A program made the translations under genes and the position numbers. From an uncultured Phycisphaerales bacterium (GTDB taxonomy: Bacteria; Planctomycetota; B15-G4; CAYZWU01): 64,000 nt of DNA. The DNA lies in assembly GCA_964464495.1 (NCBI GenBank), contig CAYXGI010000002.1:115927-179926 (forward strand), read 5' to 3'. Of this stretch, positions 18,138 to 56,175 are shown piece after piece (the stretch's first letter is position 1; each line of letters begins with the position of its first letter). The notes below the pieces were generated by a model, which was not told the origin of the DNA, made no database searches, and saw only the letters and a program-made list of their open reading frames with translations.

Positions 18138-19058
18138 ATGCGCACAATCGGTAAGCTGGATAGTGAAGAGCAGGCCAGAACCCTCGGTGACTTTCTTCTC
18201 GTTGAAGGCATCGAAAACGAGATCGATCAAGATGGCGACCGGTCGTGGACGATCTGGGTTCATTCCGAGGACCAGATCGACAGCGCGCGCCAGATCCTCG
18301 ACCGGTTCGCGCGTAATCCCGATGCAGCCGAGTTCTCGAGTGCGGCCTCGACAGCGCGCGCTCTCAAACGCCGGGAGAAACGAAAGACGGCACGCTCGCG
18401 CACGCGCTTTGTCGACGTGCGCACCACCTGGTCATCGGCCACCGTACTGAGACCGGGTCCCCTGACACTCGGCTTCATCGGGGCGAGTCTCGTCGTGGCC
18501 GTGCTCTCCCGGCTCGGCGGCAACGAGGATGTCGTGCAACACCTCGCCATCACCAGCCACGAGGTGGCGGGCGGCTACATCAGATGGATCAAGGGCCTGC
18601 GCGAGATCATGAGCGGAGAGGTCTGGCGCCTCTTCACACCGATCTTTCTTCACTTCACGATCCTCCATCTGCTCTTCAACATGCTCTGGCTCAAGGACCT
18701 GGGGAGCATGATCGAGTCGCGACAGGGATCATGGCGTCTCACGGCGCTCATCGTCGTTATCGCCGCTCTCTCCAACGTGGGGCAGTACTACATGGAAGGC
18801 CCCCGGTTCGGCGGCATGTCGGGCGTCGTCTACGGTCTGCTCGGGTATATCTGGATTCGGGGCAAGTTCGATCCCGCCTCGGGCTACTTTCTCCCGCGGT
18901 GGATCATCGTGATGATGATGGGTTGGTTTGTTCTCTGCTTCGTCGGCGTCATCCCGAACATCGCCAACACCGCTCACGGCGTGGGGCTTCTCGTGGGTGC
19001 GATCTGGGGATTCATTTCTTCCGGACGACTTCGGTCTTCCGGAAGACTCTGGAAATGA
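18138..19058 (+). CDS. Rhomboid-family intramembrane serine protease (GlpG-like), with an N-terminal cytoplasmic domain.
   Basis: GMSGVVYGLLG has the GxSG catalytic Ser. AHGVGLLVGAIWG has the catalytic His. There are 6 TM segments. It starts 6 bp after the selenoprotein-candidate stop. Confidence 0.85.
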   Translation: MRTIGKLDSEEQARTLGDFLLVEGIENEIDQDGDRSWTIWVHSEDQIDSARQILDRFARNPDAAEFSSAASTARALKRREKRKTARSRTRFVDVRTTWSSATVLRPGPLTLGFIGASLVVAVLSRLGGNEDVVQHLAITSHEVAGGYIRWIKGLREIMSGEVWRLFTPIFLHFTILHLLFNMLWLKDLGSMIESRQGSWRLTALIVVIAALSNVGQYYMEGPRFGGMSGVVYGLLGYIWIRGKFDPASGYFLPRWIIVMMMGWFVLCFVGVIPNIANTAHGVGLLVGAIWGFISSGRLRSSGRLWK

Positions 19059-32836: not shown

Positions 32837-34384
32837 ATGGTGATCTGGCCGCCATGCATGGGCTGGAACAGTCTGTCCCTGGCGAGTGCGCGTTGTTTTT
32901 CCATTTTGAGAGAATCGGAAGTGAAAGATCACGAATCCCTTCGATCCCGCGTGAGCCGCCGGGATTTTCTTCGAACCTCGACAGGCGCAGCGGCCGCAGC
33001 CGCTTTCGGCGGATCGTGTGCGAGTGCCCACACTGCGCCAAGGAAACGCAAAGGAACAAAAAACCGCTCCAAACCGAACATCATCTACGTCATGCTCGAC
33101 GAGCTCGGCCCGTTCGAACTCTCCTGCCTCGGTCACGACAAGCTCGAGACACCCCACATCGACCGCATGGCGGCCGAGGGCATGCTGTTCGATCAGTGCT
33201 ATGGAGGCGCGCCCGTGTGTGCGCCCACCCGGTCGTGCCTGCTGCAAGGCCTCCACGGCGGGCACACGTCGGTGCGCGGCAACCTCGGCGGCATTTCGCT
33301 GCGGACCGGCGATGCAACCATCGCGTCTGTACTGAAAAATGCCGGCTACGCCACGGGCGGATTCGGCAAGTGGGGTGTGGGCGCCGTGGGTACGGAGGGC
33401 GTTCCGGAGCAGCACGGTTTCGACACGTTTTTCGGCTACTACCATCAGATCCACGCCCACGACTATCACCCCGAATATCTCTGGCGCAACAGCGTCAAGG
33501 TTCCACTGCCGGGTAATGAGGATGGAAAAACAGAACAGTTCACTCAGTCAGTGATCTTCGAGGAAGCGATCCGCTTCATCCGCCGGAATCGGGAGCGCCC
33601 CTTTTTCGCCTACCTGCCCTGGACCGTGCCCCATGGCCGCCACTCGCACTTTCCCGAGAATGACCCGGCCTGGGACAGGTTCAAGGACAAGGACTGGCCG
33701 CACGCGGCCAAGGTCTACGCCGCCATGGTGAGCATGGCCGACCGACAGATCGGCGAGATATTGGCGCTGCTGAAAAAGTGCGGCATCGACGACAACACGA
33801 TCGTGTTCGTCACGGGCGACAATGGCGGCCAAGACTACGTGAAGAACTTTTTTCAACCGAACAGGCATCTGCGGGGTTTCAAGCGCGACGTCTACGAGGG
33901 CGGCCTGCGCGTCCCGTCGGTGGTGCGCTGGCCGGGCGCTGTTCCCGCCGGCACACGGAGCGATCTCGTCTGGTACTTCCCCGACGTGATGCCCACCCTG
34001 TCCGAGATCGCCGGCGCCAACGAGCACCTGCCCGAGCGCGTCGACGGGATCTCGATCGCACCCACCTTGACGGGCCGGACCGATCAGCAGAGGAAGCGCA
34101 ATTTTCTCTACTGGGAATACCGCAAGGTGGCCGACTGGGGAAAGCATACCTACGAGAAAGACCTCGCTCAAGCGGTGCGCAAGGGCGACTTCAAGGCGGT
34201 GCGAATCCGGAACGAGAGCGGGTTCGAGCTGTACAACCTTGCTGACGATCCCGGTGAGAAAATCAACATCGCCTCTGACCGTCCAGAAACCGTTGCCGCA
34301 CTCGCGGCGATCGCGAAAAGGGAACACGAAGAGCCACCGCCCCAGGACGAGCCCAAGGCGCCGGGCGGCAAGCGTTTCATCTGA
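32837..34384 (+). CDS. Cys-type sulfatase (formylglycine-dependent, arylsulfatase/GalNAc-sulfatase-like). Tat signal.
   Basis: SRRDFLRTSTGAAAAAAF is a Tat signal. NIIYVMLDELG...CAPTRSCLLQGLHGGH is the CxPxR FGly motif. AAGGGA lies 5 nt upstream of ATG 32837. An alternative start is GTG 32921. Confidence 0.85.
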   Translation: MVIWPPCMGWNSLSLASARCFSILRESEVKDHESLRSRVSRRDFLRTSTGAAAAAAFGGSCASAHTAPRKRKGTKNRSKPNIIYVMLDELGPFELSCLGHDKLETPHIDRMAAEGMLFDQCYGGAPVCAPTRSCLLQGLHGGHTSVRGNLGGISLRTGDATIASVLKNAGYATGGFGKWGVGAVGTEGVPEQHGFDTFFGYYHQIHAHDYHPEYLWRNSVKVPLPGNEDGKTEQFTQSVIFEEAIRFIRRNRERPFFAYLPWTVPHGRHSHFPENDPAWDRFKDKDWPHAAKVYAAMVSMADRQIGEILALLKKCGIDDNTIVFVTGDNGGQDYVKNFFQPNRHLRGFKRDVYEGGLRVPSVVRWPGAVPAGTRSDLVWYFPDVMPTLSEIAGANEHLPERVDGISIAPTLTGRTDQQRKRNFLYWEYRKVADWGKHTYEKDLAQAVRKGDFKAVRIRNESGFELYNLADDPGEKINIASDRPETVAALAAIAKREHEEPPPQDEPKAPGGKRFI

Positions 34385-38272
<3,888 letters not shown>

Positions 38273-38380
38273 GGCATCCATCGCGCGGCGCCTTTTCCAG
38301 ATTGCGTGAACCGGTTCCGGTCACTACGGAGTCTTCCTTTAATAAAGACCCCTGCGTATCTTTGTGAAAAGGAATCGACG

Positions 38381-40648
38381 ATGGTGGTGAAAATCGAAAT
38401 CCTCCTCTCCCACGAAGACTTCGTGCGCGCACTGTCGCGGCGCCTCGTGATTGACGAACACGTCGTCGACGACGTGCTCCAGGAGACATGGCTCGCCGCG
38501 CTCGAACGGCCGCCGCATGCAGCGGGCGCGCTGCGCGCCTGGCTCGGCACTGTGGCGCGCAACTTCATCTTCTCCATGCGGCGCGACGACCGGCGGCGCG
38601 TCCTGCGCGAACGCACGGTGCACAAGCAGGACGGTGCTCCCAGCCCGGCGGAGATCGTGGAGCGCGAAGCGGCGCGGCGCTGCCTGGTGGAGTCGGTCCT
38701 CGACCTTGACGCGATCTACCGCGATCCGATCCTTCTGCGCTACTACGAGGATCGTCCACCAAGAGAGATCGCCAAACGGCTCAACCTTCCCGTGGAAACA
38801 GTAAGGACGCGCATCAAGCGCGGTCTCGCCCAGCTCCGCAAGAACCTCGACGCTGTTTACGGCGGCGACGGCCATTCGTGGTGCATCGCGCTCCTGCTCG
38901 TTTCAGGTCTCGAGAAGAAGTTTCTCGCGCCCGGGCTCTGGGCAGCGGTTGTCGAAAAGATTCCGAGCATTTTCGTGATGAACGCCAGCCGTGTGGCGGC
39001 GGTGAGCGCGGCGGGGCTCCTGGCGGCCACGGCGATCTTCGTGACACTGTTCATCGACGAGACCGAGACGCAGCCCACGTTGATCGCTGCCGCGCACCAG
39101 AGCGCCGCTCCCACTGCTGATGTGTTCACTGTGAAAGAGAACGCCTCGCCGGCCACGAAAGAAATCGAACCGGCCAGAGGAGAAACGCACACTCCTCGTT
39201 CCGAGGGTTATGAAATTGCAAGACCTGATGCGCCGACAGAACCACGGTCTGCGCCCGCGAGTTCGCTTGGCGAGAGACGTTCGCGCCGCGTTAACGCCAC
39301 CCACTTCGGGCAGGAAACAGCGGTGCCGCACAACATGGTCCGGATTCCTGCGGGTGAGACCTGGCTCGGCATGGACGAGAAACAGGTCAAATCTTTTGGA
39401 GCGGGACAATCCTCAACACTCGCCCTTCTTTCCGGTTCGATCCCACGGCACGCGGTTGAGGTCGACGCCTTCTATTGCGATCGTTTCGAGGTCACCAACG
39501 CCCAGTGGGCTCACTTCCTCGAGGCGACTGGTCGGAAGCCGTCGCAGCTTCTCGTGGAGTTGTCCTGGAGAGGCAAAACAACCTGCCCCGACAAGGAAGC
39601 GCGATTACCCGTGAGGAACGTCGATCTCAACGATGCCAGGGCTTTCGCTCGATGGTGCGGCAAGAGACTTCCCACCGAGGCGGAATGGATGCGAGCGGCG
39701 TCGGCCGACAAGGGCGCTCTCTACTCGTGGGGAAACGAATACGATCCAGGAAATTGTTCCACCAGGGAGACGCACACACGGCGTGAAAAACTGATGCCAG
39801 TTGGCTCCCACCCCGGCGGCGTTTCGCCCTTCGGTGTCCACGATATGACGGGCAGCGTGTGGGAGTGGACCGAGACGGCCTTCGAAGCCTATCAAGGATA
39901 CGAGCCGCTCGTGCACTCGGTGGGGAGACGGAAAGAAGTCCTCATTCCCGGTTTCGACGCAAGGCAATTCGTGGTCAAGGGAGGGGTCTACAACGGAAAC
40001 GACCTCGTCAACCTTCTTGCCATCAGGCAGCCGTGCCTCGCCATAACGAACCTCGACTCCCTCGGTTTTCGCTGTGTCAAGGATGTTGAACCGGGATCGA
40101 CGCTGTTCAAGCATGTCAGAAACGATCTCACCGGATCGATCTACGCGGGCATCGACCTCGCTCAAGAGAGAATTTTCGTAGCCGAGGCGGTCGAGGAGGC
40201 CACGCACGAACAGCACCTGACTCCTGAGTTCGACTACTTGCTGATCGCTCCCATGCGGTCGATCCCCGCCACCGAGAAAAAGATCAGAAACCAGAGTCCC
40301 CAGTCTCCCCAGGTGATCGGGGTCCTGTCCACGAGCCGGCCTCTCGACGATCCCAGCCTGCCGCCGGGTACATACATCCTCGCCTATCGCCACAACGGCC
40401 AGTCGCCGGACACCAAAACAAAAGATGTGGACTACCCCAGGAACAGATCTCTCATCCTCTTCATGAGTCCGAAGGGGGTCGTTGTCGGCCACGTCGATGG
40501 AAGAATCAGTAGTAAAAAACTGCGCCACAACAATGTCGAGGCCAGAATCGGATCACGAATCTCCATTCAACTGTTGACCGAGATCGTACCGCCTTACTCG
40601 GCTCGATTCGAGTTCGGGGTTCGGATCAAGGCCAACCCATTCCGTTGA
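38381..40648 (+). CDS. ECF sigma factor fused to a transmembrane segment and a C-terminal FGE-sulfatase (SUMF1-type) domain lacking the catalytic Cys pair.
   Basis: The N-terminus has sigma-70 region 2 (VVDDVLQETWLAALE) and region 4 (PPREIAKRLNLPVETVRTRIKRGLAQLR). A hydrophobic helix (AAVSAAGLLAATAIFVTLFI) follows. The FGE domain has ...MVRIPAGETWLGMD...DRFEVTNAQWAHFL...RLPTEAEWMRAA...GSVWEWT..., with no CHxSYC-like active-site motif. AAGGAA lies 7 nt upstream of ATG 38381. Confidence 0.8.
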   Translation: MVVKIEILLSHEDFVRALSRRLVIDEHVVDDVLQETWLAALERPPHAAGALRAWLGTVARNFIFSMRRDDRRRVLRERTVHKQDGAPSPAEIVEREAARRCLVESVLDLDAIYRDPILLRYYEDRPPREIAKRLNLPVETVRTRIKRGLAQLRKNLDAVYGGDGHSWCIALLLVSGLEKKFLAPGLWAAVVEKIPSIFVMNASRVAAVSAAGLLAATAIFVTLFIDETETQPTLIAAAHQSAAPTADVFTVKENASPATKEIEPARGETHTPRSEGYEIARPDAPTEPRSAPASSLGERRSRRVNATHFGQETAVPHNMVRIPAGETWLGMDEKQVKSFGAGQSSTLALLSGSIPRHAVEVDAFYCDRFEVTNAQWAHFLEATGRKPSQLLVELSWRGKTTCPDKEARLPVRNVDLNDARAFARWCGKRLPTEAEWMRAASADKGALYSWGNEYDPGNCSTRETHTRREKLMPVGSHPGGVSPFGVHDMTGSVWEWTETAFEAYQGYEPLVHSVGRRKEVLIPGFDARQFVVKGGVYNGNDLVNLLAIRQPCLAITNLDSLGFRCVKDVEPGSTLFKHVRNDLTGSIYAGIDLAQERIFVAEAVEEATHEQHLTPEFDYLLIAPMRSIPATEKKIRNQSPQSPQVIGVLSTSRPLDDPSLPPGTYILAYRHNGQSPDTKTKDVDYPRNRSLILFMSPKGVVVGHVDGRISSKKLRHNNVEARIGSRISIQLLTEIVPPYSARFEFGVRIKANPFR

Positions 40649-40695: not shown

Positions 40696-43293
40696 TCAAA
40701 AGTGGGTGTCGTAGTTGCCGGGGGTGAGGCCCTGGAGTACTTTCATTTCTCCCTTGTCGGGGTCGCCGATTTTGACCGTGTACGTGCCGTCGTGGAAGAC
40801 CTTGGGGCGGTAGGTCGTGCCGTTGATTCTCAGGGTATAGACGATCTTGCCGTCGGCCTCGTCGAAGACCTGTACCACCGGGTTGATGAGCCCCTTCACC
40901 ATGATCGTTGGAAGATGTCCGAACACTTTGCGGCCGTAGTTATCCTCCTGCGCGAAAACCACGGGCCATCCCTCATAGGGTTCGGTCCCGCCTGTGATCG
41001 ACGACGGCCAGCGCGGCCAGTTCTCGAGCGAGATGGTGCGATCCTTCTTCCTGAATCGCGCGATGCCGAAACCGGTGGCGCGGTCGTAGAGCTTGGCCGG
41101 TTTCCTTCCGGTGAAGACCGGGTTGGACACGGCGTGGACCGTGATCTTGTTGCCGAATCCGTCGTGAAACTCGCCCGTGTACTTGGGTGCGCCCTCCTTG
41201 CGGTTCGCGCCCGGCTCGGGCGGAAACCAGCGCCGCGGCCAGACATTCGACACCGACGGCACGCAGAGCGCGTAGGCGGCGTCATTCCAATCGTCGACGC
41301 CGTACTGGACGGTGCTGCCCAGATGCTGGTCGCCGGCGAGGTGGACGGCGAAGCCGCGCTGCATGGCGCGCAGCGCGCGGTCGCGGCCCGTCTTGGGCCA
41401 ACCGTTCGAATCGTGATCGCTCACGATCTTGTCGTTCTCGGCGTACTGTCCCGGCTCGAAAATCCGCAGCCGCGGCACAGGCGCGTCGGAGCCCGAGTCA
41501 TCGGGCAAGGTGGCCACGTTGGCAAAGATGGTCTGGGAAAGGACCACCTTCATCCACGCGCCGTGGCTCCAGTCGGCCGCCCAGTGGTCGAGAAAGGCGA
41601 GCTGCCGCTCGCCGAGAAGCTTCGCGTCGGGAACGTCCGAACTCCTGGCCGCGTCGAAATCGGGATTCTGCGACCAGCCGTTGCGGATCTTGCCCTCGGG
41701 GACGACCACCTTGGGCGGCGACTTGAATTTGCGGTCCTCGATCACCGCGAAGCTGATTCCGCCGTAGTTCATGGCGCAGTAGTAAACTCCGATGCCCTGC
41801 TCGACCGGCGTGGGATCGAAGGGATCGGGCAGGTGGCTCGTCTGGGTGCGCTCCACCATCTTCACCCACACAGGCGGCATCTTGTAACCGCCTGAATCCT
41901 GCTGCTCAGCTCCCCCGCCCTTTTTCTGCGTTGCCTTGCCGCCCGCGCCCCAGATGTTGCCGTGGTAGACATCGTGGTCGTCGGGGATCGCCACCGTGGG
42001 CCGGTCGCGCATCATCTCACCGTGCGCCCAGCCGTAGAGATACCACTTTCTCAGGTAATCGAGGATGGCCTTGTCCACAGGCGACCGCTGGCAGCCGAAA
42101 CCGCCCACTCCCTCGTAGATCTGGTCGCCCGAAAAGAAGAGCACGTCGGGATCGTGTTCGAGTACGGCGGCGACCAGGTCGTTGTTGGGAAAACCGAGAT
42201 CATTGTTGCCCGTGAAGACCGCCACAACGATCTCGTCCTTGTCGAGCGGCTCCTTCCTGATCGTACCCGTCCTGAAGTAGGAGACCGGCCCTCTTCGGCC
42301 GCGGAGTTCGTACCAGAGGCGATACGCCCAGGGCCGCGACGCGTCCCATCCCTCGACGCGCAAGGTGGCGGTGCGGGCGCGCTGGTCGATCGGACCGACT
42401 GCCACGGTCTTCCAGTTGCCGTCTCCCTTCTTGTCGACCTGCAAGCTCACAGTCTTCCCGTCTTGCGGCCCCACGGGCGGCATCTGAGCGGTCAATTTCA
42501 GAACGCCTCGGCTCAGAGTGTACTGGCTGAACAGTACCGGTCCAAAAGCCCGCTCATCGTGTCTGTCGACACGACTGCCCGCGATCCGCCAGTCGGCAAA
42601 CCAGGCGCCTTGGGCAGTGTGCCCCTTCGGCTGGTCGATCGGTTTCAGATCGCTGACCAGTGCGAAACCTCCGGCGAGATCAGCCGGATCATGTCCGCGG
42701 CTCACGGCTTCGCCGATGAGCTGGGCGTCTTCGGGATCGAAGGCCGCCACCCTGATCGTGCACGGCCCCTCGGTTCGCTCCGAGATCAGCACCAGTTCGA
42801 CACCGTCAGGATAAGTGGTCGTGAAACGGCCGCCCTTCTCGTCCGCGGGCGGATCGCCGATGAAGAAGGTCCCCGCCGTGGTGAAACCGGCGCGCAGCCC
42901 CTTGCCATGGACGGCGCTGTCACGGTAATCATCGAATTCCCCCTTCACACCGATCATGAAGCCGATCCATCCCTCGAACGACGTTTCGGTCTCATCAATC
43001 GGCAGTCCGACGCGCACGCGCAGAAACAGATCGCCCGGCCGGTCTGCAACCTCCCTCGTCAGGAGAAAGACATTTCTGCTCTGAGCGGCGACAACGCACT
43101 CGAGACGCCCCTCGACCAGTCTCCAGTCCTGCAGGCGATTGGCCCAAAAATCAGGCCCGATCCAGATGCGTTCGAGATCGTCGGGCCATTCGCTCCGGAA
43201 GACGTCAGCCGGCAGCGCGCTGAGGGCGCCACCGATGAACAACAAAGAGGAGAGGATCAAGAAGAGGCAGAGTAAGACTCTCTGACGTTTCAT
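40696..43293 (-). CDS. PhoD-like phosphatase / calcineurin-like metallophosphoesterase (865 aa). Signal peptide.
   Basis: VAVFTGNNDLGFPNN...VLFFSGDQIYEG is a PhoD-like metallophosphatase pattern. The start is chosen at the ATG of MKRQRVLLCLF (43293) with GGAAGGA upstream. It overlaps the sulfatase gene stop by 4 bp. Confidence 0.7.
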   Translation of the reverse strand: MKRQRVLLCLFLILSSLLFIGGALSALPADVFRSEWPDDLERIWIGPDFWANRLQDWRLVEGRLECVVAAQSRNVFLLTREVADRPGDLFLRVRVGLPIDETETSFEGWIGFMIGVKGEFDDYRDSAVHGKGLRAGFTTAGTFFIGDPPADEKGGRFTTTYPDGVELVLISERTEGPCTIRVAAFDPEDAQLIGEAVSRGHDPADLAGGFALVSDLKPIDQPKGHTAQGAWFADWRIAGSRVDRHDERAFGPVLFSQYTLSRGVLKLTAQMPPVGPQDGKTVSLQVDKKGDGNWKTVAVGPIDQRARTATLRVEGWDASRPWAYRLWYELRGRRGPVSYFRTGTIRKEPLDKDEIVVAVFTGNNDLGFPNNDLVAAVLEHDPDVLFFSGDQIYEGVGGFGCQRSPVDKAILDYLRKWYLYGWAHGEMMRDRPTVAIPDDHDVYHGNIWGAGGKATQKKGGGAEQQDSGGYKMPPVWVKMVERTQTSHLPDPFDPTPVEQGIGVYYCAMNYGGISFAVIEDRKFKSPPKVVVPEGKIRNGWSQNPDFDAARSSDVPDAKLLGERQLAFLDHWAADWSHGAWMKVVLSQTIFANVATLPDDSGSDAPVPRLRIFEPGQYAENDKIVSDHDSNGWPKTGRDRALRAMQRGFAVHLAGDQHLGSTVQYGVDDWNDAAYALCVPSVSNVWPRRWFPPEPGANRKEGAPKYTGEFHDGFGNKITVHAVSNPVFTGRKPAKLYDRATGFGIARFRKKDRTISLENWPRWPSSITGGTEPYEGWPVVFAQEDNYGRKVFGHLPTIMVKGLINPVVQVFDEADGKIVYTLRINGTTYRPKVFHDGTYTVKIGDPDKGEMKVLQGLTPGNYDTHF

Positions 43294-44735
43294 TTTTTTT
43301 CCTTCCCGAAAGCGGGATTGGGCAACGACGGAATGGGAGCGTCCACATCCCGTTGCCACCTGTGAAGGAGATCTCTCAATTCCTTCGCTTTTTGCGGCCG
43401 TGCGTCGGCGAGGTCCGTGGCCTCTCCGATGTCGTCGGCCAGATTGTAGAGTTCGACGCGACCGTCCTCGAAGAATTCGATCAGCTTCCAGTCCCCTTGC
43501 CGCACGACCCCGGCTGGAGTCGTGCGCCAGGGAGTCTTCATACCGCGATAAGCTTCGAGGTATGCGGGAAAGTGCCAGAAGATCGCGTCACGTTCGAGAC
43601 GTCCCGACTCATCGATCAACGGCACCAGGCTCTCCCCGTCGAGGAGATGAGCGTCCGGCCTGGACGCCCCGGCGAGGGCGAGCATGGTGGGGTAGAAATC
43701 GATCCCGATCACCGGCGTATGACATTCGCTGCCAGCCCGCACGCGGCCCGGCCAGCGCACGACCATCGGTTCGCGGATACCGCCCTCGTAGAGCATGCCC
43801 TTCGAACCCCGAAGCGGCGCGGCCGAGGAGATCGCACCGTGAGGACCGTTGTCGGAAAAGAAGACTATCATCGTGTCCTCGGCCAGGCCGAGAGTTTCGA
43901 GCCTCTCCACGATCCGGCCCACGCTCCGGTCGACGCTCTCGATCATTGCCGCGTACTTGGGATTGTCGTTGTCGTGCCCCCCCACGCCCTCCTTGGCCGC
44001 ATAGCGGGCGGCGGCATCGTCGCGCGCCTGGATCGGAGTGTGTACGGCAAAATGAGAGAGGTACAAGAAGAAAGGCCGATCCCGGTGACCGTCGATAAAG
44101 CCGAGCGCCTCGTCGGTCAGCCGTTCGGTCAGCGATTCGCCCTCCGGGCCATCTTCGAGATCGCTGTTCTTGTAGGGACTGAAGTAACTCTTGGGATGCC
44201 CCGACTGGTTGCCGCCCACGTTGAGATCGAACCCCTGGCCGAGCGGTCCCGTTTCGGGATCGCGGCCGAGGTGCCATTTTCCGATCGCGGCGCTCCGGTA
44301 GCCCGCCGGCCGGAGCGCCTCGGCGATCGTGGTCACGTCGGCGCTGAGGATTTTCCTGTTCTCCACGGGGATCAGCTTGCGATTCTTTGACTTGCCCCGC
44401 GCCGAGCTGTTCACCGTGTAGATCCCGTGGCGCGGCGTGTACTGTCCCGACAGGAGGCACGCGCGGGTGGGCGCGCAGTTGGGTGCGTTGGCATAGGCAT
44501 TGGTGAACACCATCCCCTCGCGGGCGAGTCGATCGACGCAGGGCGTCTCGTAGTAGGCGCTCCCCATGAATCCCAGATTGGTCCAGCCGAGATCGTCGAC
44601 GAGAATGAAGATGAAGTTCGGTTTCCGTCGGTCATTGCCAAAGCCGGGCAACGATGAGCACCCGCTGAGCGCCACGCCTGCAGTTCGCCAACCGACTCTC
44701 CTCAAGAATTCACGACGTTTCACCCGAACCTCCAC
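43290..44735 (-). CDS. Cys-type sulfatase (arylsulfatase A-like). Tat-like signal.
   Basis: RREFLRRVGWRTAGVAL is a Tat-like signal. NFIFILVDDLGW...CAPTRACLLSGQYTPRHG is the CxPxR motif. Confidence 0.85.
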   Translation of the reverse strand: MEVRVKRREFLRRVGWRTAGVALSGCSSLPGFGNDRRKPNFIFILVDDLGWTNLGFMGSAYYETPCVDRLAREGMVFTNAYANAPNCAPTRACLLSGQYTPRHGIYTVNSSARGKSKNRKLIPVENRKILSADVTTIAEALRPAGYRSAAIGKWHLGRDPETGPLGQGFDLNVGGNQSGHPKSYFSPYKNSDLEDGPEGESLTERLTDEALGFIDGHRDRPFFLYLSHFAVHTPIQARDDAAARYAAKEGVGGHDNDNPKYAAMIESVDRSVGRIVERLETLGLAEDTMIVFFSDNGPHGAISSAAPLRGSKGMLYEGGIREPMVVRWPGRVRAGSECHTPVIGIDFYPTMLALAGASRPDAHLLDGESLVPLIDESGRLERDAIFWHFPAYLEAYRGMKTPWRTTPAGVVRQGDWKLIEFFEDGRVELYNLADDIGEATDLADARPQKAKELRDLLHRWQRDVDAPIPSLPNPAFGKEKK

Positions 44736-44921
44736 CCGGAAAGAGGACTGATCTCATTGAGGAACATCGCCGGCGGTTTGTGCCCCTTGCGATGTAACCG
44801 CCCACGGTGCGGTAAATTGAATCGAACTTGACCGCACCCGCGCTTTGGAACACAATCCTACAAACTCAGGCCTTCCGGCCAAAGTATTTCCAATATTCGA
44901 GTGACAAACGAAGGGCCCGTC

Positions 44922-46772
44922 ATGCAGCTCACTTCTCTCGACTGGATCGTCATCGCTGTTTGCCTTGCCGTTGCTTTCGCGCCCGCCGTCTTTTTCGCGC
45001 GGCGCGCCGGAAAGGGAACGGCCGAGTTCTTCGCGTCGGGCCGCGCCGCGCCGTGGTGGCTGATCGGAACGTCGATGGTGGCGACCACCTTCAGCACCGA
45101 TACGCCCAACCTGGTCACCAACTTCGTGCGCACCAACGGTGTCTCCTACAACTGGGTCTGGTGGGCGTTCCTGCTCACCGGCATGATGACCGTATTTTTC
45201 TATGCCCGGCTCTGGCGCCGCTCCGGGGTGCTCACCGATCTCGAGTTCTACGAACTGCGCTACTCGGACAAGCCAGCCGCCTTCGTGCGCGGCTTCCGGG
45301 CGGTCTATCTCGGCCTCTTCTTCAACTGTTTCATCATGGCATCGGTGACCCTCGCCGCGGTCAAGATCGCCAATGTGATGCTCGGCTGGGATCGACTCCA
45401 GACCGTCCTCGTATGCGGCAGCATCTGCATCGTCTTCTCGGCCATGTCGGGGCTCTGGGGCGTGCTCGCCTCGGACATCATCCAGTTCGTCATCGCCATG
45501 GTGGGTGTTTTCGTCGCGGTCTACTTTGCGCTTGATCACGATTCGGTCGGCGGCCTGTCAGGCATGATCGAGAAGATCGATGTCAAGACTCTCAGCATAC
45601 TGCCTGATTTCGACAACTGGGAAATAACCCTGACCGTTCTGATCATCCCCCTCGCCGTGCAGTGGTGGTCGGTCTGGTACCCGGGCGCCGAGCCGGGCGG
45701 CGGCAGCTACATCGCCCAGCGCATGCTGGCCGCCAAGGACGAGAAGCACGCCATGGGCGCCACCCTCTGGTTCAATATCGCCCACTACGCGCTGCGGCCC
45801 TGGCCGTGGATCATCGTGGCTCTCTGCTCGATCCTCGTCTTTCCCGAGCTGACCGACATCCAGAAGACCCTCCCCCATGTGAGCGATGACCTGATCGGCG
45901 ACGACCTCGCCTATCCGGCCATGCTCACCCTTCTGCCCCACGGCCTGCTCGGCCTGCTCGTCGCCTCCCTGCTCTCGGCCTACGTGTCGACCATGTCGAC
46001 CCATCTCAACTGGGGGGCGTCCTACCTGGTGAACGATTTCTACCGCCGTTTTCTCCGAGGCGACGGGACGGAGCGCCATTATGTCTGGGTGTCGCGCCTG
46101 GTGACGGCCGGGCTCATGGTGGTGGCGGGAAGCGTGATGTTCGTTCTCGACACGGCCAAGGACGCCTTTGAATTGATGATCTCCATCGGTGCGGGCACGG
46201 GCGCGATCTACCTTCTCCGGTGGTTCTGGTGGCGGATCAATGCGTGGAGCGAGATCGCCGCCATGATCTCCTCTTTTGTCATCTCCATGGGTTTCTTCTG
46301 GTACAACAAGACCCTCCTGTCCAGCGGACCGGGACCGCTGGGCGACTGCTTGAACGACTGCGGCCTTTTGAGGCTGTCGAGTGAGGGTGTTGTCCAGGGC
46401 GTCAAGTTACATATCTCGCTGATCTCCACCGTCCTCGTCACCACCGCGGTCTGGATCGTGGTCACCTTCGTGACCCGTCCCGCGAACCGCGAGACGTTGC
46501 TCAGGTTCTGCCGACTCGTCAAGCCCGCCGGTCCGGGATGGCGCGCGATCCGCAAGGAGGCCGGTGTCGAAGCTTCTCCCGACAGTCTTCCCCAGGCCTT
46601 TCTGGGATGGGCGCTCGGATGCGTGCTCGTCTATTCGGCTCTCTTCGGCACGGGATGTTTCATTTACGGCCACAAGGCGCAGGGCGCGGTTTGCGCCGTA
46701 CTGGTTGTCGCGAGTAGCCTCTGGCTCTGGCGGTTGCTGACTGCCATGTGGCGTGAGAAGCCGGCTGAATAG
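44922..46772 (+). CDS. Sodium:solute symporter family (SSS/SLC5-like) transporter.
   Basis: About 14 TM helices. ...GRAAPWWLIGTSMVATTFSTDT... is an SSS N-terminal pattern. The ORF track starts at GTG 44901. The ATG at 44922 has GAAGGG 7 nt upstream. Confidence 0.75.
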   Translation: MQLTSLDWIVIAVCLAVAFAPAVFFARRAGKGTAEFFASGRAAPWWLIGTSMVATTFSTDTPNLVTNFVRTNGVSYNWVWWAFLLTGMMTVFFYARLWRRSGVLTDLEFYELRYSDKPAAFVRGFRAVYLGLFFNCFIMASVTLAAVKIANVMLGWDRLQTVLVCGSICIVFSAMSGLWGVLASDIIQFVIAMVGVFVAVYFALDHDSVGGLSGMIEKIDVKTLSILPDFDNWEITLTVLIIPLAVQWWSVWYPGAEPGGGSYIAQRMLAAKDEKHAMGATLWFNIAHYALRPWPWIIVALCSILVFPELTDIQKTLPHVSDDLIGDDLAYPAMLTLLPHGLLGLLVASLLSAYVSTMSTHLNWGASYLVNDFYRRFLRGDGTERHYVWVSRLVTAGLMVVAGSVMFVLDTAKDAFELMISIGAGTGAIYLLRWFWWRINAWSEIAAMISSFVISMGFFWYNKTLLSSGPGPLGDCLNDCGLLRLSSEGVVQGVKLHISLISTVLVTTAVWIVVTFVTRPANRETLLRFCRLVKPAGPGWRAIRKEAGVEASPDSLPQAFLGWALGCVLVYSALFGTGCFIYGHKAQGAVCAVLVVASSLWLWRLLTAMWREKPAE

Positions 46773-46894: not shown

Positions 46895-48295
46895 TCAACC
46901 GCCGGTGCGCTCGTTGGTGTCGGTGAAGCCGTTGTCGTAAAGACCGACGAGCTTGGTCACCTTGCCCGAGGAGTCCCGCACGAACTGGATCCTGAAATAC
47001 TCGAGGCCATTAAGGCCAAAGAGGTCGTCGCCCATGGGCAAAAGCTCGAACTCGGGCCGGTCATCGCGACTGTAGAAGAGACTCCCTTTCTCCAACCTGA
47101 TCGCGCGCGGGCCGAAAACACCAACGTAGGGTTTGAGTTTCGACTCGCTGAGCACGACCGGATTGCGCACGGCGTCGAGCGTTTTCATCGCCCACTCCAA
47201 CTGCTTTCTTTTCCCCTCGTCGGTGGTCGTGTCGACGAGGATTTTCATCGCCTCGAGCCGGGCCGCGTCGAGAGCATCGTCGGCGGGGACCTTGATGTGC
47301 GGAGCGATTCCGGTCCCCTCCCAGTTGGTCTGAGTGATCGGATTGATCGCCCGGCCGTAGGGGAGGGACATTTCCACCTCGTACTCGTCGATTCGCCGGA
47401 ACTCGATAGGATGGGCGCCCCCGCCGGTTGTCTCGCCCACGATGGTGGCGCGCTCCATGTTCTTGAGGTTGTAGGTAAATTCCTCGGCCGCCGAGAAGGT
47501 GTACCGGCTCGTCAAGACAAAGACGGGAAGATCGGTGAGTCGTGGCCCCGCCACCTGGGCCTGTGTCCAGAACTGGCGCGTCTTGTCGGTCTTGCGGATA
47601 TAAAAGCTGTTCAGATGCTGGACCTCGTCGAAGAGATAGCTGGAGATGAGCTGGATCATCGTTGGTGACCCTCCCCCGTTCTGGCGCAGATCGAAGATGA
47701 GAGCGTCGCAGTTGGAGAGGAAATTGAGCGCGGCGATCGCCGTCTCCCCCGCCTCGGATGCGTCGGCGAACATGCGGAGATCGATGTAGCCGATGTTGCC
47801 GTCGAGCCGTTCGATCTTCTGAAAGCCGAAGTTCTGGTAGCGCTGCTCGGCGAGCCTCTGCGCGCGCCGTTCGTCGGGCGACAGTCCTTCATCCCCGTCT
47901 TCGGGAACGTCGGAGGCTGGCATGACGCGCAGATGCTTGTCCTTGCAGATCGACCGCAAATCCTTGGTGAGCATCTCGGTGAATGCCATGAGGCTGGTGA
48001 TGTGATCGTAAGCCCCCTCCTTGAGCTTGAGGGTGACCAGTTCGTCCATATCGGCGGCCTTGTCGGGAAAGATGTAGACCTCGTTGAGTGCCTCCGTGAC
48101 CGCTTCGACGATCCCGGCCCGTGCCGCGGCATCGACGGTCCGCTCGTCGCTGCCGACGACGACCCGTCTCTGAGCGTGTGCCGTCGAGCCGAGAAGAGCC
48201 GCGAACAGAAGGCCGAAAACGACCACTTGCAGAGCTCTTCGCGAGAGGAGTTGAGAGACAAAAGTCTTTTGCCGAGAGTTCTTCTGAGTTTTCAT
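46895..48295 (-). CDS. S41-family peptidase (C-terminal processing protease-like). Signal peptide.
   Basis: IFDLRQNGGGSPTM is the S41 catalytic-domain signature. It is secreted. Confidence 0.75.
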   Translation of the reverse strand: MKTQKNSRQKTFVSQLLSRRALQVVVFGLLFAALLGSTAHAQRRVVVGSDERTVDAAARAGIVEAVTEALNEVYIFPDKAADMDELVTLKLKEGAYDHITSLMAFTEMLTKDLRSICKDKHLRVMPASDVPEDGDEGLSPDERRAQRLAEQRYQNFGFQKIERLDGNIGYIDLRMFADASEAGETAIAALNFLSNCDALIFDLRQNGGGSPTMIQLISSYLFDEVQHLNSFYIRKTDKTRQFWTQAQVAGPRLTDLPVFVLTSRYTFSAAEEFTYNLKNMERATIVGETTGGGAHPIEFRRIDEYEVEMSLPYGRAINPITQTNWEGTGIAPHIKVPADDALDAARLEAMKILVDTTTDEGKRKQLEWAMKTLDAVRNPVVLSESKLKPYVGVFGPRAIRLEKGSLFYSRDDRPEFELLPMGDDLFGLNGLEYFRIQFVRDSSGKVTKLVGLYDNGFTDTNERTGG

Positions 48296-49359
48296 GATTC
48301 GCTTCTCCTGTTCCTGATGATCGCGTCTATCTTCTTGGGCGCCAGTTTCATGACAAAGGTTTCACGGCGAAAGGCGTCGCTGTCGAAGGGGCTCTTCGAG
48401 CATTTCCGGAAACCGAGTTTCCTGTAGAGCTTGTTCGCCGCGACCAGCTTGGGGCTGGTCTGGAGATAGAGTGCCCGAGCGCCGAAAGCCCTGGCACGCT
48501 CGATCATGGCGTGGGCCAGCTCCGTGCCGATTTGGTGGCGGCGCGCCTCGGGCGCCACCGCCATCTTGGCCATTTCGAAGAGGTTCGCACCATGCCGGAT
48601 GAGAGCGCAGACACCGACGATCCGACCGTCGAGGCGGGCGCAGAGGATCGCACCGCCCCGATCGACGATGGTCCCCTTCGGATCGGCCAGAACACATTCG
48701 TCAGCCTCCTCGATAACAAAGGACTCTTCGATCCATGCGCGGTTGAGGCTGACGAAGTGCTTTTTCCAGGCCGGCCTGTAGTCGACGACCCGGGCAGTAC
48801 CGCTCACGGTTGACTCCGCTCGCGCAGCGGTCGGTTTGTGCAGCCTGGCCGTGACACGGGCGTACATGTCCTGCTTGTCGAGAAGTTTTTCGACGCGATC
48901 GAGTCCCGAAAGCAGATCCTGCCCCGACGATTCGATGAGGAGCTTCGTGGCGGCGCCGATCTCATTCCATACAGGCGCCAGCACAGCGGCGATCCGCTTG
49001 CCCTTGGCCGAGAGACGGAGCAGGCGCTTGCGTTCGTCCTGCCGGCTCTTTGCGGCGAGAAGGAGCTTATTCTCGATCATCTCACCGGCGAGCTGGTTGA
49101 CTGCCGGATGGGTCAGGCGGAGTGACTGGGCGAGGGCGGTGACCGACTGGGGAGCGCCCTTTTTCAACGCGAAGAGAATCGAGAACCAGCGCGCCTCGAA
49201 ATCGACGTCGAGATCCTTGTACACGCGCGACACGTCTTTCATCAATCTCTCGCTCAGCCGTTTCAGGCGGCTCGCGAAGGCGAGCTCTCCCAGTTCGCTG
49301 ATCGTGTCCACTGCTGCTTCCTTCCGATTCAAGGAGTGGGCTTTTCGACAATCTATCAA
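48292..49359 (-). CDS. MarR-family transcriptional regulator fused to a GNAT N-acetyltransferase domain.
   Basis: The N-terminal winged-helix reads ...SVTALAQSLRLTHPAVNQLAGEMIENKLL.... The C-terminal GNAT reads ...RIVGVCALIRHG...LYLQTSPKLVAANKLYRKLGF. There is a 4-bp overlap with the downstream S41 gene. Confidence 0.75.
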   Translation of the reverse strand: MIDCRKAHSLNRKEAAVDTISELGELAFASRLKRLSERLMKDVSRVYKDLDVDFEARWFSILFALKKGAPQSVTALAQSLRLTHPAVNQLAGEMIENKLLLAAKSRQDERKRLLRLSAKGKRIAAVLAPVWNEIGAATKLLIESSGQDLLSGLDRVEKLLDKQDMYARVTARLHKPTAARAESTVSGTARVVDYRPAWKKHFVSLNRAWIEESFVIEEADECVLADPKGTIVDRGGAILCARLDGRIVGVCALIRHGANLFEMAKMAVAPEARRHQIGTELAHAMIERARAFGARALYLQTSPKLVAANKLYRKLGFRKCSKSPFDSDAFRRETFVMKLAPKKIDAIIRNRRSES

Positions 49360-54829: not shown

Positions 54830-56175
54830 ATCTCTTCGAATACCTCGAAACCATTCCGATGACACGGGCGCTCGGCTGGACTCTGGTGCATTTCGTCTGG
54901 CAGGGGGCGCTCCTGGCGCTGCTTGTCAAGGTTCTTCTCCATCTATTGAAGAATCGCAGCGCCAATGGTCGCTATCTCGTTTGCTGCATCGGTATGGCGC
55001 TCATGATGGCCGTGCCCGCCGCAACGCTCCTCGTGATTGCCCGCACGGCGAGCGATCCGATCGCGGCCGAGATCTCGGGCCTTCTTTCAGCCGATCTGCA
55101 GAGCCTGCCCTTGTGGACGCGTCTGTCGACCGTCCTGCCGGTGATGACTCTCTTCTGGCTCGCCGGAACCCTGCTCTTTCAAGGACGGCTCTTCATGCAC
55201 TGGAGCAACGCTCAGCGCATCAAGGTCCGAGGAACACAACCTGCCCCCGAAGAGTGGCAGCGCATCGTTATAGATCTCTGTAGAAAGATGAACATACACC
55301 AACCGGTTCGGCTTCTCGAATCCTCCCTGGCCCGCGTGCCAATGATGATGGGATGGCTGCGCCCGGTGATTCTCGTGCCGGCGACGGTACTGACCGGACT
55401 GCCTTCCGAGCATCTCCGGATGGTGATCGCCCACGAACTGGCCCATGTCCGCAGGTATGACTACATCGTCAACCTCGTTCAGGCCGTTTTCGAATCACTG
55501 CTGTTCTATCATCCAGCCGTGTGGTGGCTGTCGAACCGGTTGCGTGTCGAGCGTGAGTATTGTTGTGACGATGTCGTGGTCCGCATGGGCCGCGACGCGT
55601 TGTGTTACGCCAGGGCGCTTTCACTGCTGGACGCGATGCGTGGTGAAGAGTGCCGTACAGCCCCTGCATCGACTGGAGGATTACTCATGAACCGTATTTT
55701 CAGGATTGCCGGAGTCCCCTCGAACAGGACGAGCCGGCTCGGAGGTTGGTTGACGTTGCTCGTGATCTTGCTCTCCCTCTCGGCCGCCCTTTCGGCGATG
55801 GGCCTCTCCCCCATCACGGCCGCGGCGGGCGAAAAACCTTCCAACGCTGACGCGATCAACAAGGCCTACTATGTACCCTTCGGCTATGCGTGCGAGGTGG
55901 AAGCGCTGGTCCAGAAGCTGAAGGCCAAGGGTCTCTCCGACAAGGAGATCGAGCAGGCCCTCAAGAAGATGCAATTCCAGGAGCAGCAGTCCAAGGAAGA
56001 AGCCATGAAGAAGGCCAAGATGGACGCGCTCAAGCGCGAAAAGGAGGAGCAGGCCTTCATCAAGGAGCTCAAGGCAAAGGGGCTGTCGGACAAGGAAATC
56101 AAGACCCTCCTCTTCGAGAAGAGAATGAGGGCCAAGACATCCGGTGCAATGAAAAAGAAAAAGGCCGCGCGCTGA
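54826..56175 (+). CDS. BlaR1/MecR1-like membrane metalloprotease (peptidase M56) with a short repetitive coiled C-terminal tail in place of a penicillin-binding sensor domain.
   Basis: HELAHVRRYDYIVN is the HExxH motif, within 4 TM helices. The C-terminal tail carries the tandem repeats ELKAKGLSDKEIEQALKK and ELKAKGLSDKEIKTLLFEK. There is no transpeptidase-like SxxK sensor. Confidence 0.8.
   Translation: MNLFEYLETIPMTRALGWTLVHFVWQGALLALLVKVLLHLLKNRSANGRYLVCCIGMALMMAVPAATLLVIARTASDPIAAEISGLLSADLQSLPLWTRLSTVLPVMTLFWLAGTLLFQGRLFMHWSNAQRIKVRGTQPAPEEWQRIVIDLCRKMNIHQPVRLLESSLARVPMMMGWLRPVILVPATVLTGLPSEHLRMVIAHELAHVRRYDYIVNLVQAVFESLLFYHPAVWWLSNRLRVEREYCCDDVVVRMGRDALCYARALSLLDAMRGEECRTAPASTGGLLMNRIFRIAGVPSNRTSRLGGWLTLLVILLSLSAALSAMGLSPITAAAGEKPSNADAINKAYYVPFGYACEVEALVQKLKAKGLSDKEIEQALKKMQFQEQQSKEEAMKKAKMDALKREKEEQAFIKELKAKGLSDKEIKTLLFEKRMRAKTSGAMKKKKAAR

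Follow-up and report, generated by a model that had tools for sequence, protein, structure and literature searches.

A sigma factor, a membrane helix, and an FGE-like ectodomain in one polypeptide

We analyzed a 64,000-nucleotide (nt) stretch of DNA from an uncultured Phycisphaerales bacterium (contig CAYXGI010000002.1; hereafter, the window), in which one gene encodes a 755-amino-acid (aa) protein that joins an extracytoplasmic function (ECF) sigma factor, a transmembrane (TM) helix, and an ectodomain with the fold of the formylglycine-generating enzyme (FGE). On balance, we favor the reading that this protein is a membrane-tethered group 4 ECF of a Planctomycetota clade that combines a conserved sigma2-sigma4-linker-TM cassette with interchangeable ectodomains, and that its sigma part is freed by regulated proteolysis. 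Its parts follow one another as sigma regions 2 and 4, a 46-aa juxtamembrane linker, the TM helix, a disordered spacer, the FGE-fold domain, and a beta-rich C-terminal domain. An earlier note on this DNA, made from the letters alone, had described a single polypeptide running from an ECF sigma factor through a TM helix to an FGE-like ectodomain, and Pfam, NCBIfam, hydropathy, and AlphaFold2 (AF2) agree with that description. The extracytoplasmic part exists as the note claimed, but it measures ~530 aa and not ~450; likewise, the FGE/SUMF1-type domain is present but does not lie at the C terminus, which is formed by the ~185-aa domain at residues 571 to 755. That domain, the juxtamembrane linker, the stand-alone secreted paralogues, and membership of a known clade had all been missed. 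The features are as follows (pLDDT, predicted local distance difference test; ORF, open reading frame).

38307 to 38350, + strand: conserved promoter-like block, with a −35-like TGAACC (38307 to 38312), a 16-nt spacer, a −10-like GAGTC (38329 to 38333), and then the invariant TCTTCCTTnAATAAAGA
38370 to 38373, + strand: Shine-Dalgarno-like AGGA, 7 nt 5′ of the ATG, read from the sequence
38381 to 40648, + strand: coding sequence of the 755-aa sigma-TM-FGE-like protein (stop codon 40646 to 40648; ORF listing, Pfam)
38408 to 38599, + strand: sigma-70 region 2, residues 10 to 73 (Pfam PF04542, E = 4e-9; AF2 pLDDT >90; Foldseek matches ECF sigma factors)
38678 to 38842, + strand: sigma-70 region 4, residues 100 to 154 (PF08281, Sigma70_r4_2, residues 100 to 152, E = 2e-11; PF04545, E = 9e-11; AF2 pLDDT >90)
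38855 to 38992, + strand: cytoplasmic juxtamembrane linker, residues 159 to 204, 46 aa, clade-conserved, carrying GGDGHSWCIALLLVSGL
38993 to 39055, + strand: single TM helix, residues 205 to 225, VAAVSAAGLLAATAIFVTLFI (Kyte-Doolittle maximum 2.24; AF2 helix 205 to 224)
39056 to 39316, + strand: extracytoplasmic Pro/Ala/Ser/Thr/Glu-rich low-complexity spacer, residues 226 to 312, 87 residues, poorly conserved
39317 to 40090, + strand: FGE-sulfatase-fold domain, residues 313 to 570, predicted to be non-catalytic (PF03781, E = 1.4e-42, residues 318 to 567)
40091 to 40645, + strand: beta-rich C-terminal domain, residues 571 to 755, ~185 aa, no Pfam family, conserved NPF motif at its end

The ORF listing gives an uninterrupted forward-strand frame that begins at either GTG 38306 or ATG 38381 and ends at 40648. 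ATG 38381 is the supported start, since all orthologues of the protein share the N terminus MVVKIEILLSHE, the AGGA lies 7 nt upstream, and the promoter-like block overlaps the alternative GTG. The longer ORF from GTG 38306 was rejected, as orthologues begin MVVKIE and the conserved block covers that codon. The identical protein (P0001) is found on 15 independent metagenome contigs that come from several assemblies (JGI, ENA, NCBI, and Logan), and the orthologues P0002 (75% identity) and P0005 (59%) are intact with the same architecture. Since the identical protein is called on 15 contigs, a sequencing frameshift that splits sigma factor from sensor, which the earlier note had raised against itself, is excluded, and an assembly artifact was rejected on the same evidence.

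The N-terminal part belongs to the ECF (group 4) sigma-70 family. The Pfam matches for r2, r4, and r4_2 all exceed their gathering thresholds, the Pfam scan of the 755-aa protein gave no r1 or r3 match that would indicate regions 1.1 and 3, and the NCBIfam model sigma70-ECF (TIGR02937) scores 74 bits against a cut-off of 42.9. Among 41 clade members, residues 1 to 160 hold no conserved Cys column, with C101 present in 4 of the 41 and sigma2 free of Cys altogether. The linker that follows reads GGDGxSWCxALLLVSGL here, against a clade consensus of GGDRRxWxLALxPLAG, and its W167 and L171 are at least 90% conserved in these 41 proteins, whatever their C-terminal extension; AF2 places linker helices at 166 to 175 and 184 to 200 with modest confidence.

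The single hydrophobic helix described previously was recovered by both the hydropathy scan and AF2. Residues 205 to 225 contain the sole 19-residue window above 2.0, and the only other window above 1.5 (197 to 215, 1.59) overlaps the N-terminal edge of the helix. Because basic K/R residues flank the helix on its N-terminal side and acidic D/E residues on its C-terminal side, the predicted topology is N-in/C-out, with the sigma part inside and the FGE-like part outside. The protein is thus modeled as a cytoplasmic sigma factor with one TM anchor, a disordered spacer, and a rigid, non-catalytic two-domain ectodomain in the periplasm.

It had also been claimed that no separate anti-sigma factor exists, which agrees with our findings: the ORF listing shows no anti-sigma gene next to ours, and Pfam detects neither FecR nor any other anti-sigma family in the 755-aa protein at E up to 1. 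The zinc-finger motif HxxxCxxC (ZAS) is absent from residues 159 to 204, where there are one His and one Cys (H165 and C168) and no CxxC. A fused anti-sigma domain in the linker was considered and rejected, given the lack of a Pfam match and an AF2/Foldseek arrangement of sigma2 and sigma4 resembling that of RNA polymerase (RNAP)-bound ECFs (root-mean-square deviation, 6 to 10 Å, compared to 17 to 21 Å for anti-sigma-bound ECFs). The structural part of this argument is weak, as the model of the N-terminal part has a predicted template modeling score (pTM) of 0.46.

The ectodomain has an FGE fold without the FGE active site

Residues 313 to 570 belong to the FGE-sulfatase superfamily (PF03781). 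The hidden Markov model check of the FGE identity that had been called for gave a full-length match (146.6 bits against a cut-off of 23.3, with profile positions 4 to 255 of 255 covered), and the three sequence blocks reported before, RIPAGE, RLPTEAEW, and GSVWEWT, are all present. AF2 modeled residues 291 to 755 from a 22-sequence family alignment with a mean pLDDT of 84.4 and a pTM of 0.85; within the FGE-like domain, pLDDT is mostly 85 to 94, and it is low in the spacer, where the ectodomain model begins and where orthologues are only 27 to 45% identical. Foldseek searches of the PDB with the domain returned CalU17, ToxD, human and bacterial FGE, OvsA/EgtB, and PvdO, with target-normalized TM-scores of 0.62 to 0.68 and E values of 1e-14 to 1e-16 for FGE, CalU17, and ToxD.

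The absence of the catalytic Cys pair, also part of the earlier claim, was borne out at the residue level. According to PDB entry titles, the catalytic cysteines of human FGE are C336 and C341, and BLASTP against the human SUMF1 C terminus (with a human sequence not taken from a database record) aligns KGGSYMC336HRSYC341 with KGGVYNG539NDLVN544, so that Gly539 and Asn544 replace the pair. None of the 22 aligned family members carries a Cys at these columns. A PDB sequence search with a 72-aa fragment, for residue-level alignment with FGE, returned no match.

The FGE-like domain could still be an active periplasmic enzyme, for formylglycine generation or another oxidase or sulfoxide-synthase chemistry, as its full-length PF03781 match and FGE fold would allow. 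We regard this as highly improbable, since both catalytic Cys residues are replaced here, no family member has Cys in their place, and Pfam detects no DinB-like iron-binding domain in the 755-aa protein. NCBIfam scores for the sulfoxide-synthase-type families are also far under their cut-offs (EgtB, 93.6 against 360; SenA, 81.7 against 420; OvoA, 46.7 against 400), with the FGE-like part alone matching. PorK/GldK scores 53.4 bits against a cut-off of 350, and the N terminus of our protein is a sigma factor and not a lipoprotein signal. Because the Cys pair and a DinB-type domain are both missing, the domain appears to be an FGE-fold module without FGE chemistry. In PDB sequence searches, CalU17, OvsA, and ToxD are at least as close to it as true FGEs, so a link to sulfatases does not follow from the Pfam family name by itself.

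The C-terminal domain that follows matches no Pfam family at E up to 1 and is modeled mainly as beta strands. Since the joint AF2 model of residues 291 to 755 reaches a pTM of 0.85, the FGE-like and C-terminal domains are predicted to form one rigid unit. A phmmer search of 1.84 billion representative proteins with the C-terminal domain returned only 23 clusters, and in nearly all of them it comes after an FGE-like domain. Its weak resemblance to Ig-like repeats of giant proteins points to an accessory domain of the beta-sandwich type.

Sigma and FGE modules have been joined or separated repeatedly

We searched 5.8 billion proteins for relatives and dissected the matches by domain, which gave three groups. 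The first comprises ~15 clusters with the sigma-TM-FGE architecture, ranging from 75% down to ~30% identity to our protein, some of them without the C-terminal domain. The second consists of stand-alone secreted proteins of ~580 aa (P0010 to P0017) that have a signal peptide, a Lys/Glu-rich insertion, and an FGE-like plus C-terminal part ~50% identical to ours. The third contains more than 80 long ECFs, from Planctomycetota wherever named, with sigma parts 45 to 59% identical to ours and extensions that include CarboxypepD_reg and others; these match our protein in the sigma/linker part alone. Since the post-sigma4 linker motif and the TM helix are common to the whole clade, the mobile unit is sigma2-sigma4-linker-TM.

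One stand-alone paralogue, P0010 (L011/L012:10001-11752), is secreted, with a signal peptide and a ~70-aa Lys/Glu-rich insertion. It is ~54% identical to our ectodomain and was found in the same ENA sample as our protein, on a contig of compatible composition (tetranucleotide r = 0.974), where its neighbors are housekeeping genes. The ectodomain of our protein is a duplicate of this secreted stand-alone family. A scan of a genome-contig collection found no close relative of the 755-aa protein, and a metagenome scan returned mostly generic FGE-domain proteins, with L021 as the sole informative locus. At two distant, non-syntenic loci (L021:5971-9344 and L015:1009-6066), a sigma-TM-FGE gene is directly followed by a second gene for a membrane-anchored or secreted FGE-like protein; at L021, the FGE domains of the two proteins are closely related paralogues, and the C-terminal domain is present in the second one as well. 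These adjacent genes may encode partners or may simply be tandem duplications.

Neighbor-joining trees (100 bootstraps) built separately for the two domains disagree. In the FGE tree, our protein and its orthologues group with the stand-alone P0010 to P0012 (bootstrap 97%), and the fused P0008 groups with the stand-alone P0016 (100%); in the sigma tree, our group joins P0006/7 (96%). Monophyly of all fused proteins received 0% bootstrap support in both trees, and the sigma-FGE proteins occupy at least 5 separate positions on the sigma tree, among sigma factors with other extensions. The incongruence of the sigma and FGE trees points to repeated fusion and/or fission of the two modules.

We next consider selection on each part, given here as dN/dS (Nei-Gojobori) between our protein and its orthologues in L007 (P0002) and L009 (P0005).

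Sigma domain: 0.12 versus P0002, 0.21 versus P0005
Linker: 0.15 versus P0002, 0.28 versus P0005
FGE-like domain: 0.18 versus P0002, 0.19 versus P0005
C-terminal domain: 0.45 versus P0002, 0.55 versus P0005
Spacer: 0.44 versus P0002, not estimable versus P0005 (saturated)

Purifying selection acts on the sigma and FGE-like parts to a similar degree, which argues that the ectodomain is not a decaying relic of an accidental fusion. These data bear on the idea that the fusion is a by-product of duplication and insertion of the sigma cassette, along the lines modeled by Pinto and da Fonseca, with an ectodomain that keeps an ancestral envelope function, or none, and does not regulate the sigma factor. 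The clade is known for unrelated extensions gained by insertion (PMC7671368), stand-alone secreted homologues exist, and the incongruent trees would fit such an origin. On the other hand, selection on the FGE-like domain is as strong as on the sigma domain, the fusion is retained across orthologues down to ~30% identity, and the occurrence of sigma-FGE proteins in at least 5 sigma-tree positions suggests that the combination has been selected. We therefore consider this explanation very unlikely.

A conserved promoter-like block precedes the gene

The earlier note had proposed looking for an ECF-type promoter upstream of 38381, and one was found at 38307 to 38333 (TGAACC-N16-GAGTC). In the 108-nt gap 3′ of the upstream GH2 gene, the three orthologous loci carry the block TGAACCGgTTCcGGTCACnnCGGAGTCTTCCTTnAATAAAGA unchanged, whereas sequence 5′ of the block cannot be aligned, and the variable positions of the promoter-like block are confined to the presumed spacer. 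The extended −35 element TGAACCG.[AT]TC occurs once in the window, compared to 0.165 expected, and also directly precedes the sigma-FGE genes of L014 and L015, which are non-syntenic. The consensus is TGAACC-N16-GA(G/C)TC; the L015 −10 element is loose (GATAC), so the strict pattern matches only the three orthologues and L014. Judged by this conservation, the block is best taken as an ECF-type promoter that is probably autoregulated.

The same check had been proposed for the neighboring sulfatase and glycosidase genes; exact, 3-mismatch, and regular-expression searches found no second copy of the motif upstream of genes in the window, and it stands only before the sigma gene. Other motif-scan matches in the window fall inside coding regions or at chance level. 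One of these, TGAACCG-N15-CGGAGTC at 55688 to 55716, has a spacer 2 nt longer than the 38307 site, lies inside a Peptidase_M56 (BlaR1-like) gene ~590 nt upstream of an S9 peptidase gene, and is probably due to chance.

A structured RNA was rejected as an explanation for the conserved block, which has no Rfam match and a fold z of −0.6, and a terminator-like hairpin in the region is not kept by compensatory changes. Upstream of the clade paralogue P0060, which comes from the same habitat, a strong intrinsic terminator precedes the motif TAAACCATTTC-N11-GCGAC (L019:3780-4000). This variant suggests that the promoter architecture is clade-wide with paralogue-specific differences.

Proposed release of the sigma factor by regulated proteolysis

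Under the reading that we favor, the full-length protein would be inactive or poorly active because its sigma part is held at the membrane. A periplasmic ligand or partner protein would bind the FGE-like module and trigger regulated proteolysis, with a site-1 cut in the ectodomain or spacer followed by intramembrane cleavage in the Ala/Gly/Ser-rich TM helix. The sigma factor, with its conserved linker, would then be free to drive its own promoter and a further regulon. Precedent comes from IutY, a sigma/anti-sigma hybrid cut first by Prc and then by RseP, and a like mechanism has been proposed for ECF52/53 (PMC8999054, PMC5411451). FGE-like domains act as sensor modules in bacterial STAND NTPases (PMC13581612), and our family search also matched FGE-like domains fused to kinases and caspases.

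Several points weigh against this reading. The S41 peptidase encoded downstream was considered as a conserved site-1 protease partner and rejected, because the window and L013 copies are only 25% identical over 124 aa. Comparison of the promoter motif covered just three independent lineages, and neither P0019 nor the L021 gene is preceded by it; the GAACCGGTTC core of the "−35" is a palindrome and might serve a different regulator as its operator. Finally, the case against a fused anti-sigma clamp on sigma2/sigma4 is weak because of the pTM of 0.46.

Alternatively, the sigma factor might work uncut, either by recruiting RNAP while tethered, as in ToxR/CadC-like regulators, or through ligand-driven conformational relief transmitted by the TM helix and linker. 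Throughout the clade, conservation of the linker that joins sigma4 to the TM helix is strong, beyond the need of a passive tether, no conserved protease partner was found, and the soluble ECF41/42 are under conformational control by their C-terminal extensions (PMC8999054). Nevertheless, IutY, the only membrane-tethered ECF that has been characterized experimentally, requires proteolysis (PMC8999054, PMC5411451), a 46-residue linker is short for reaching the nucleoid, and AF2 gave no confident docking of the linker on sigma2/sigma4. Taking both sides together, we think it rather unlikely that the uncut protein is the active form, and regulated proteolysis remains our preferred mechanism.

The sulfatase and glycosidase neighborhood

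The genes nearest to the sigma gene are as follows (Tat, twin-arginine translocation; GH, glycoside hydrolase).

32837 to 34384, + strand: Cys-type sulfatase with a Tat signal, upstream and co-directional
34430 to 38272, + strand: GH2 beta-galactosidase with an F5/8-type-C domain, upstream and co-directional
40696 to 43359, − strand: PhoD-like protein, in the convergent downstream operon (40696 to 44735)
43290 to 44735, − strand: Cys-type sulfatase with a Tat signal, in the same convergent operon

The neighbors thus correspond to those claimed previously, with the GH2 gene upstream and the PhoD-like/sulfatase operon downstream. Gene order runs from a GDSL/BNR protein through an N-acetylglucosamine (GlcNAc) 2-epimerase, GH20, a metallo-beta-lactamase-fold (MBL) protein, the sulfatase, and GH2 to the sigma gene, beyond which lie the convergent PhoD-like and sulfatase genes, followed by those for an SSF transporter, an S41 peptidase, and a MarR-GNAT fusion protein. 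The P0002 (75%) and P0005 (59%) loci retain this order, but those of P0019, P0028, and P0035 do not. Both flanking sulfatases are Cys-type (C-A-P-T-R) and carry twin-arginine motifs (RRDFLR and RREFLRR), so they are probably exported folded, which argues against periplasmic sensing of their CxPxR motif. None of the window ORFs that were scanned was identified as an FGE or anaerobic sulfatase-maturing enzyme (anSME) gene.

This setting raises the question of whether the protein is a dedicated regulator of the surrounding sulfatase/glycosidase locus that uses its FGE-like domain to detect either a fragment of a sulfated or sialylated glycan or some cue related to sulfatases. Such a role is compatible with the tethered-sigma mechanism and differs from it only in naming the signal and the regulon. 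The order sulfatase-GH2-[sigma-FGE]-PhoD-sulfatase-SSF is retained in the orthologues at 75% and 59% identity, and distant relatives also have glycan-related neighbors: the P0008 gene follows a GDSL gene and a radical-SAM/SPASM gene that is maybe anSME-like, the L021 sigma-FGE gene adjoins a gene for a BNR-repeat protein, and the L013 gene lies near beta-helix and FucU genes. As general background, the FGE fold is grouped among the C-type-lectin-like folds, and the Cys-less paralogue SUMF2 retains sulfatase binding; both would suit a sensor of this kind.

However, several findings speak against this role, and with it against the earlier suggestion that the sensor responds to glycan or sulfatase cues. 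Within the window, the promoter motif stands only before the sigma gene itself, and the neighboring SSF gene has a conserved sigma70-type promoter (TTGACC-N17-CACAAT, window 44800 to 44925) in the region between it and the divergent sulfatase gene. Relatives that are not close sit in unrelated contexts, with no sulfatase context at the P0028 and P0035 loci or around the stand-alone paralogue, which lies among housekeeping genes. Synteny at 59 to 75% identity may mean relatedness only, and glycan-active genes are abundant in these genomes, which makes for a presumably high base rate of such neighbors. In addition, both flanking sulfatases are of the Tat type and would be exported folded, and true FGEs are no nearer to the domain in sequence than are CalU17, ToxD, and OvsA. 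A dedicated locus regulator is therefore possible but doubtful. The fuller version, in which the protein is a dedicated switch that releases the sigma factor once its ectodomain, perhaps with the secreted paralogue, has bound a fragment of a sulfated or sialylated glycan in the periplasm, is unlikely.

We also made several observations on other genes in the window. Downstream of the SSF promoter is a 5′ leader, also conserved, that contains the hairpin GGCCTTCCGGCC; promoter and leader are almost invariant in the three orthologous loci. A gene for a MarR-type helix-turn-helix protein fused to a GNAT acetyltransferase (48292 to 49359, − strand) adjoins the S41 gene in all three orthologous loci, and a gene for a rhomboid intramembrane serine protease with a cytoplasmic N-terminal domain (18138 to 19058) lies ~20 kb from the sigma gene. 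The ORFs at 3228 to 7256 (− strand, 1342 aa) and 9623 to 11371 (− strand, 582 aa) match no Pfam family at E ≤ 1e-5. The gene at 819 to 3221 encodes an 800-aa protein with a sulfatase-fold domain in its C-terminal half (367 to 671); the only C/S-x-P-x-R match in its first 450 residues is SVPLR at 312, upstream of that domain, and the protein may be a different member of the alkaline-phosphatase superfamily.

Significance

To our knowledge, none of the dozens of planctomycetal ECFs with long C-terminal extensions has been characterized experimentally, and we know of no account of how the large sulfatase and glycosidase repertoires of these bacteria are regulated. The locus offers a defined test case, with a compact sigma-linker-TM cassette, a confidently modeled ectodomain, a secreted paralogue, and a candidate promoter usable as a reporter. 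Since sigma-FGE proteins are scattered and their FGE domains are interleaved with stand-alone ones, the pairing may be functional and not accidental. The general phenomenon of ECFs with swappable extensions has already been described, and the specific link to sulfatases is not supported, as it rests on synteny in close relatives and on loosely glycan-related neighbors elsewhere. If the protein were nonetheless a dedicated locus switch, it would be the first identified regulator of a polysaccharide utilization locus in Planctomycetota and would give the FGE fold its first demonstrated ligand-sensing role in sigma-factor signaling, and the repeated sigma/FGE pairing would reflect selection for sensing.

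Comparison with known systems

Like SUMF2/pFGE, PvdO, PorK/GldK, and CalU17, our protein uses an FGE fold without the catalytic Cys pair, in those proteins as a binding or structural module. It is not an equivalog of any of them, as all NCBIfam scores are far under their cut-offs, and neither these non-catalytic proteins nor the FGE-like sensors of STAND NTPases and Ser/Thr kinases are fused to a sigma factor. Our literature search found no paper on an ECF fused to an FGE-like domain, though a listing in an earlier domain-architecture table is possible.

Among membrane-tethered ECFs, IutY of Pseudomonas putida (ECF243) likewise has, in one chain, a cytoplasmic ECF at the N terminus, a lone TM helix, and a C-terminal part that lies in the periplasm. 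It differs in having a FecR-type anti-sigma domain and receiving its signal from a TonB-dependent receptor, whereas our protein has no FecR or other anti-sigma domain and no adjacent receptor gene, and instead carries a 46-residue linker and an FGE-like ectodomain. The actinobacterial ECF52 (SCO4117) and ECF53 share the sigma-TM fusion, a Pro-rich spacer, a putative ligand- or carbohydrate-binding domain, and a proposed proteolytic activation (PMC8999054). Unlike our protein, which lacks HxxxCxxC, ECF52 has a ZAS anti-sigma domain after sigma4, and both the phylum and the ectodomain differ.

The closest counterpart is the Planctomycetota ECF clade of Pinto and da Fonseca (2020), in which duplicated sigma2/sigma4 regions gain unrelated C-terminal extensions from the genes in which they land, and which is related to groups such as ECF57/ECF01-Gob (PMC7671368). 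Compared to ECF57 as described (PMC8999054), our protein has neither the two conserved Cys residues that link sigma2 and sigma4 nor a WD40 match. It shares with the clade a conserved sigma2/sigma4 part (45 to 59% identity) joined to a long unrelated extension, non-sigma homologues of that extension in related organisms, incongruent sigma and extension trees, and the lack of an adjacent anti-sigma factor. What sets it apart is the extension itself, which is clearly under purifying selection and pairs an FGE fold with a rare beta-rich domain, a pairing on which our literature search found no paper. With every tested feature of the clade present, the 755-aa protein is a further member of this variable-extension clade (PMC7671368).

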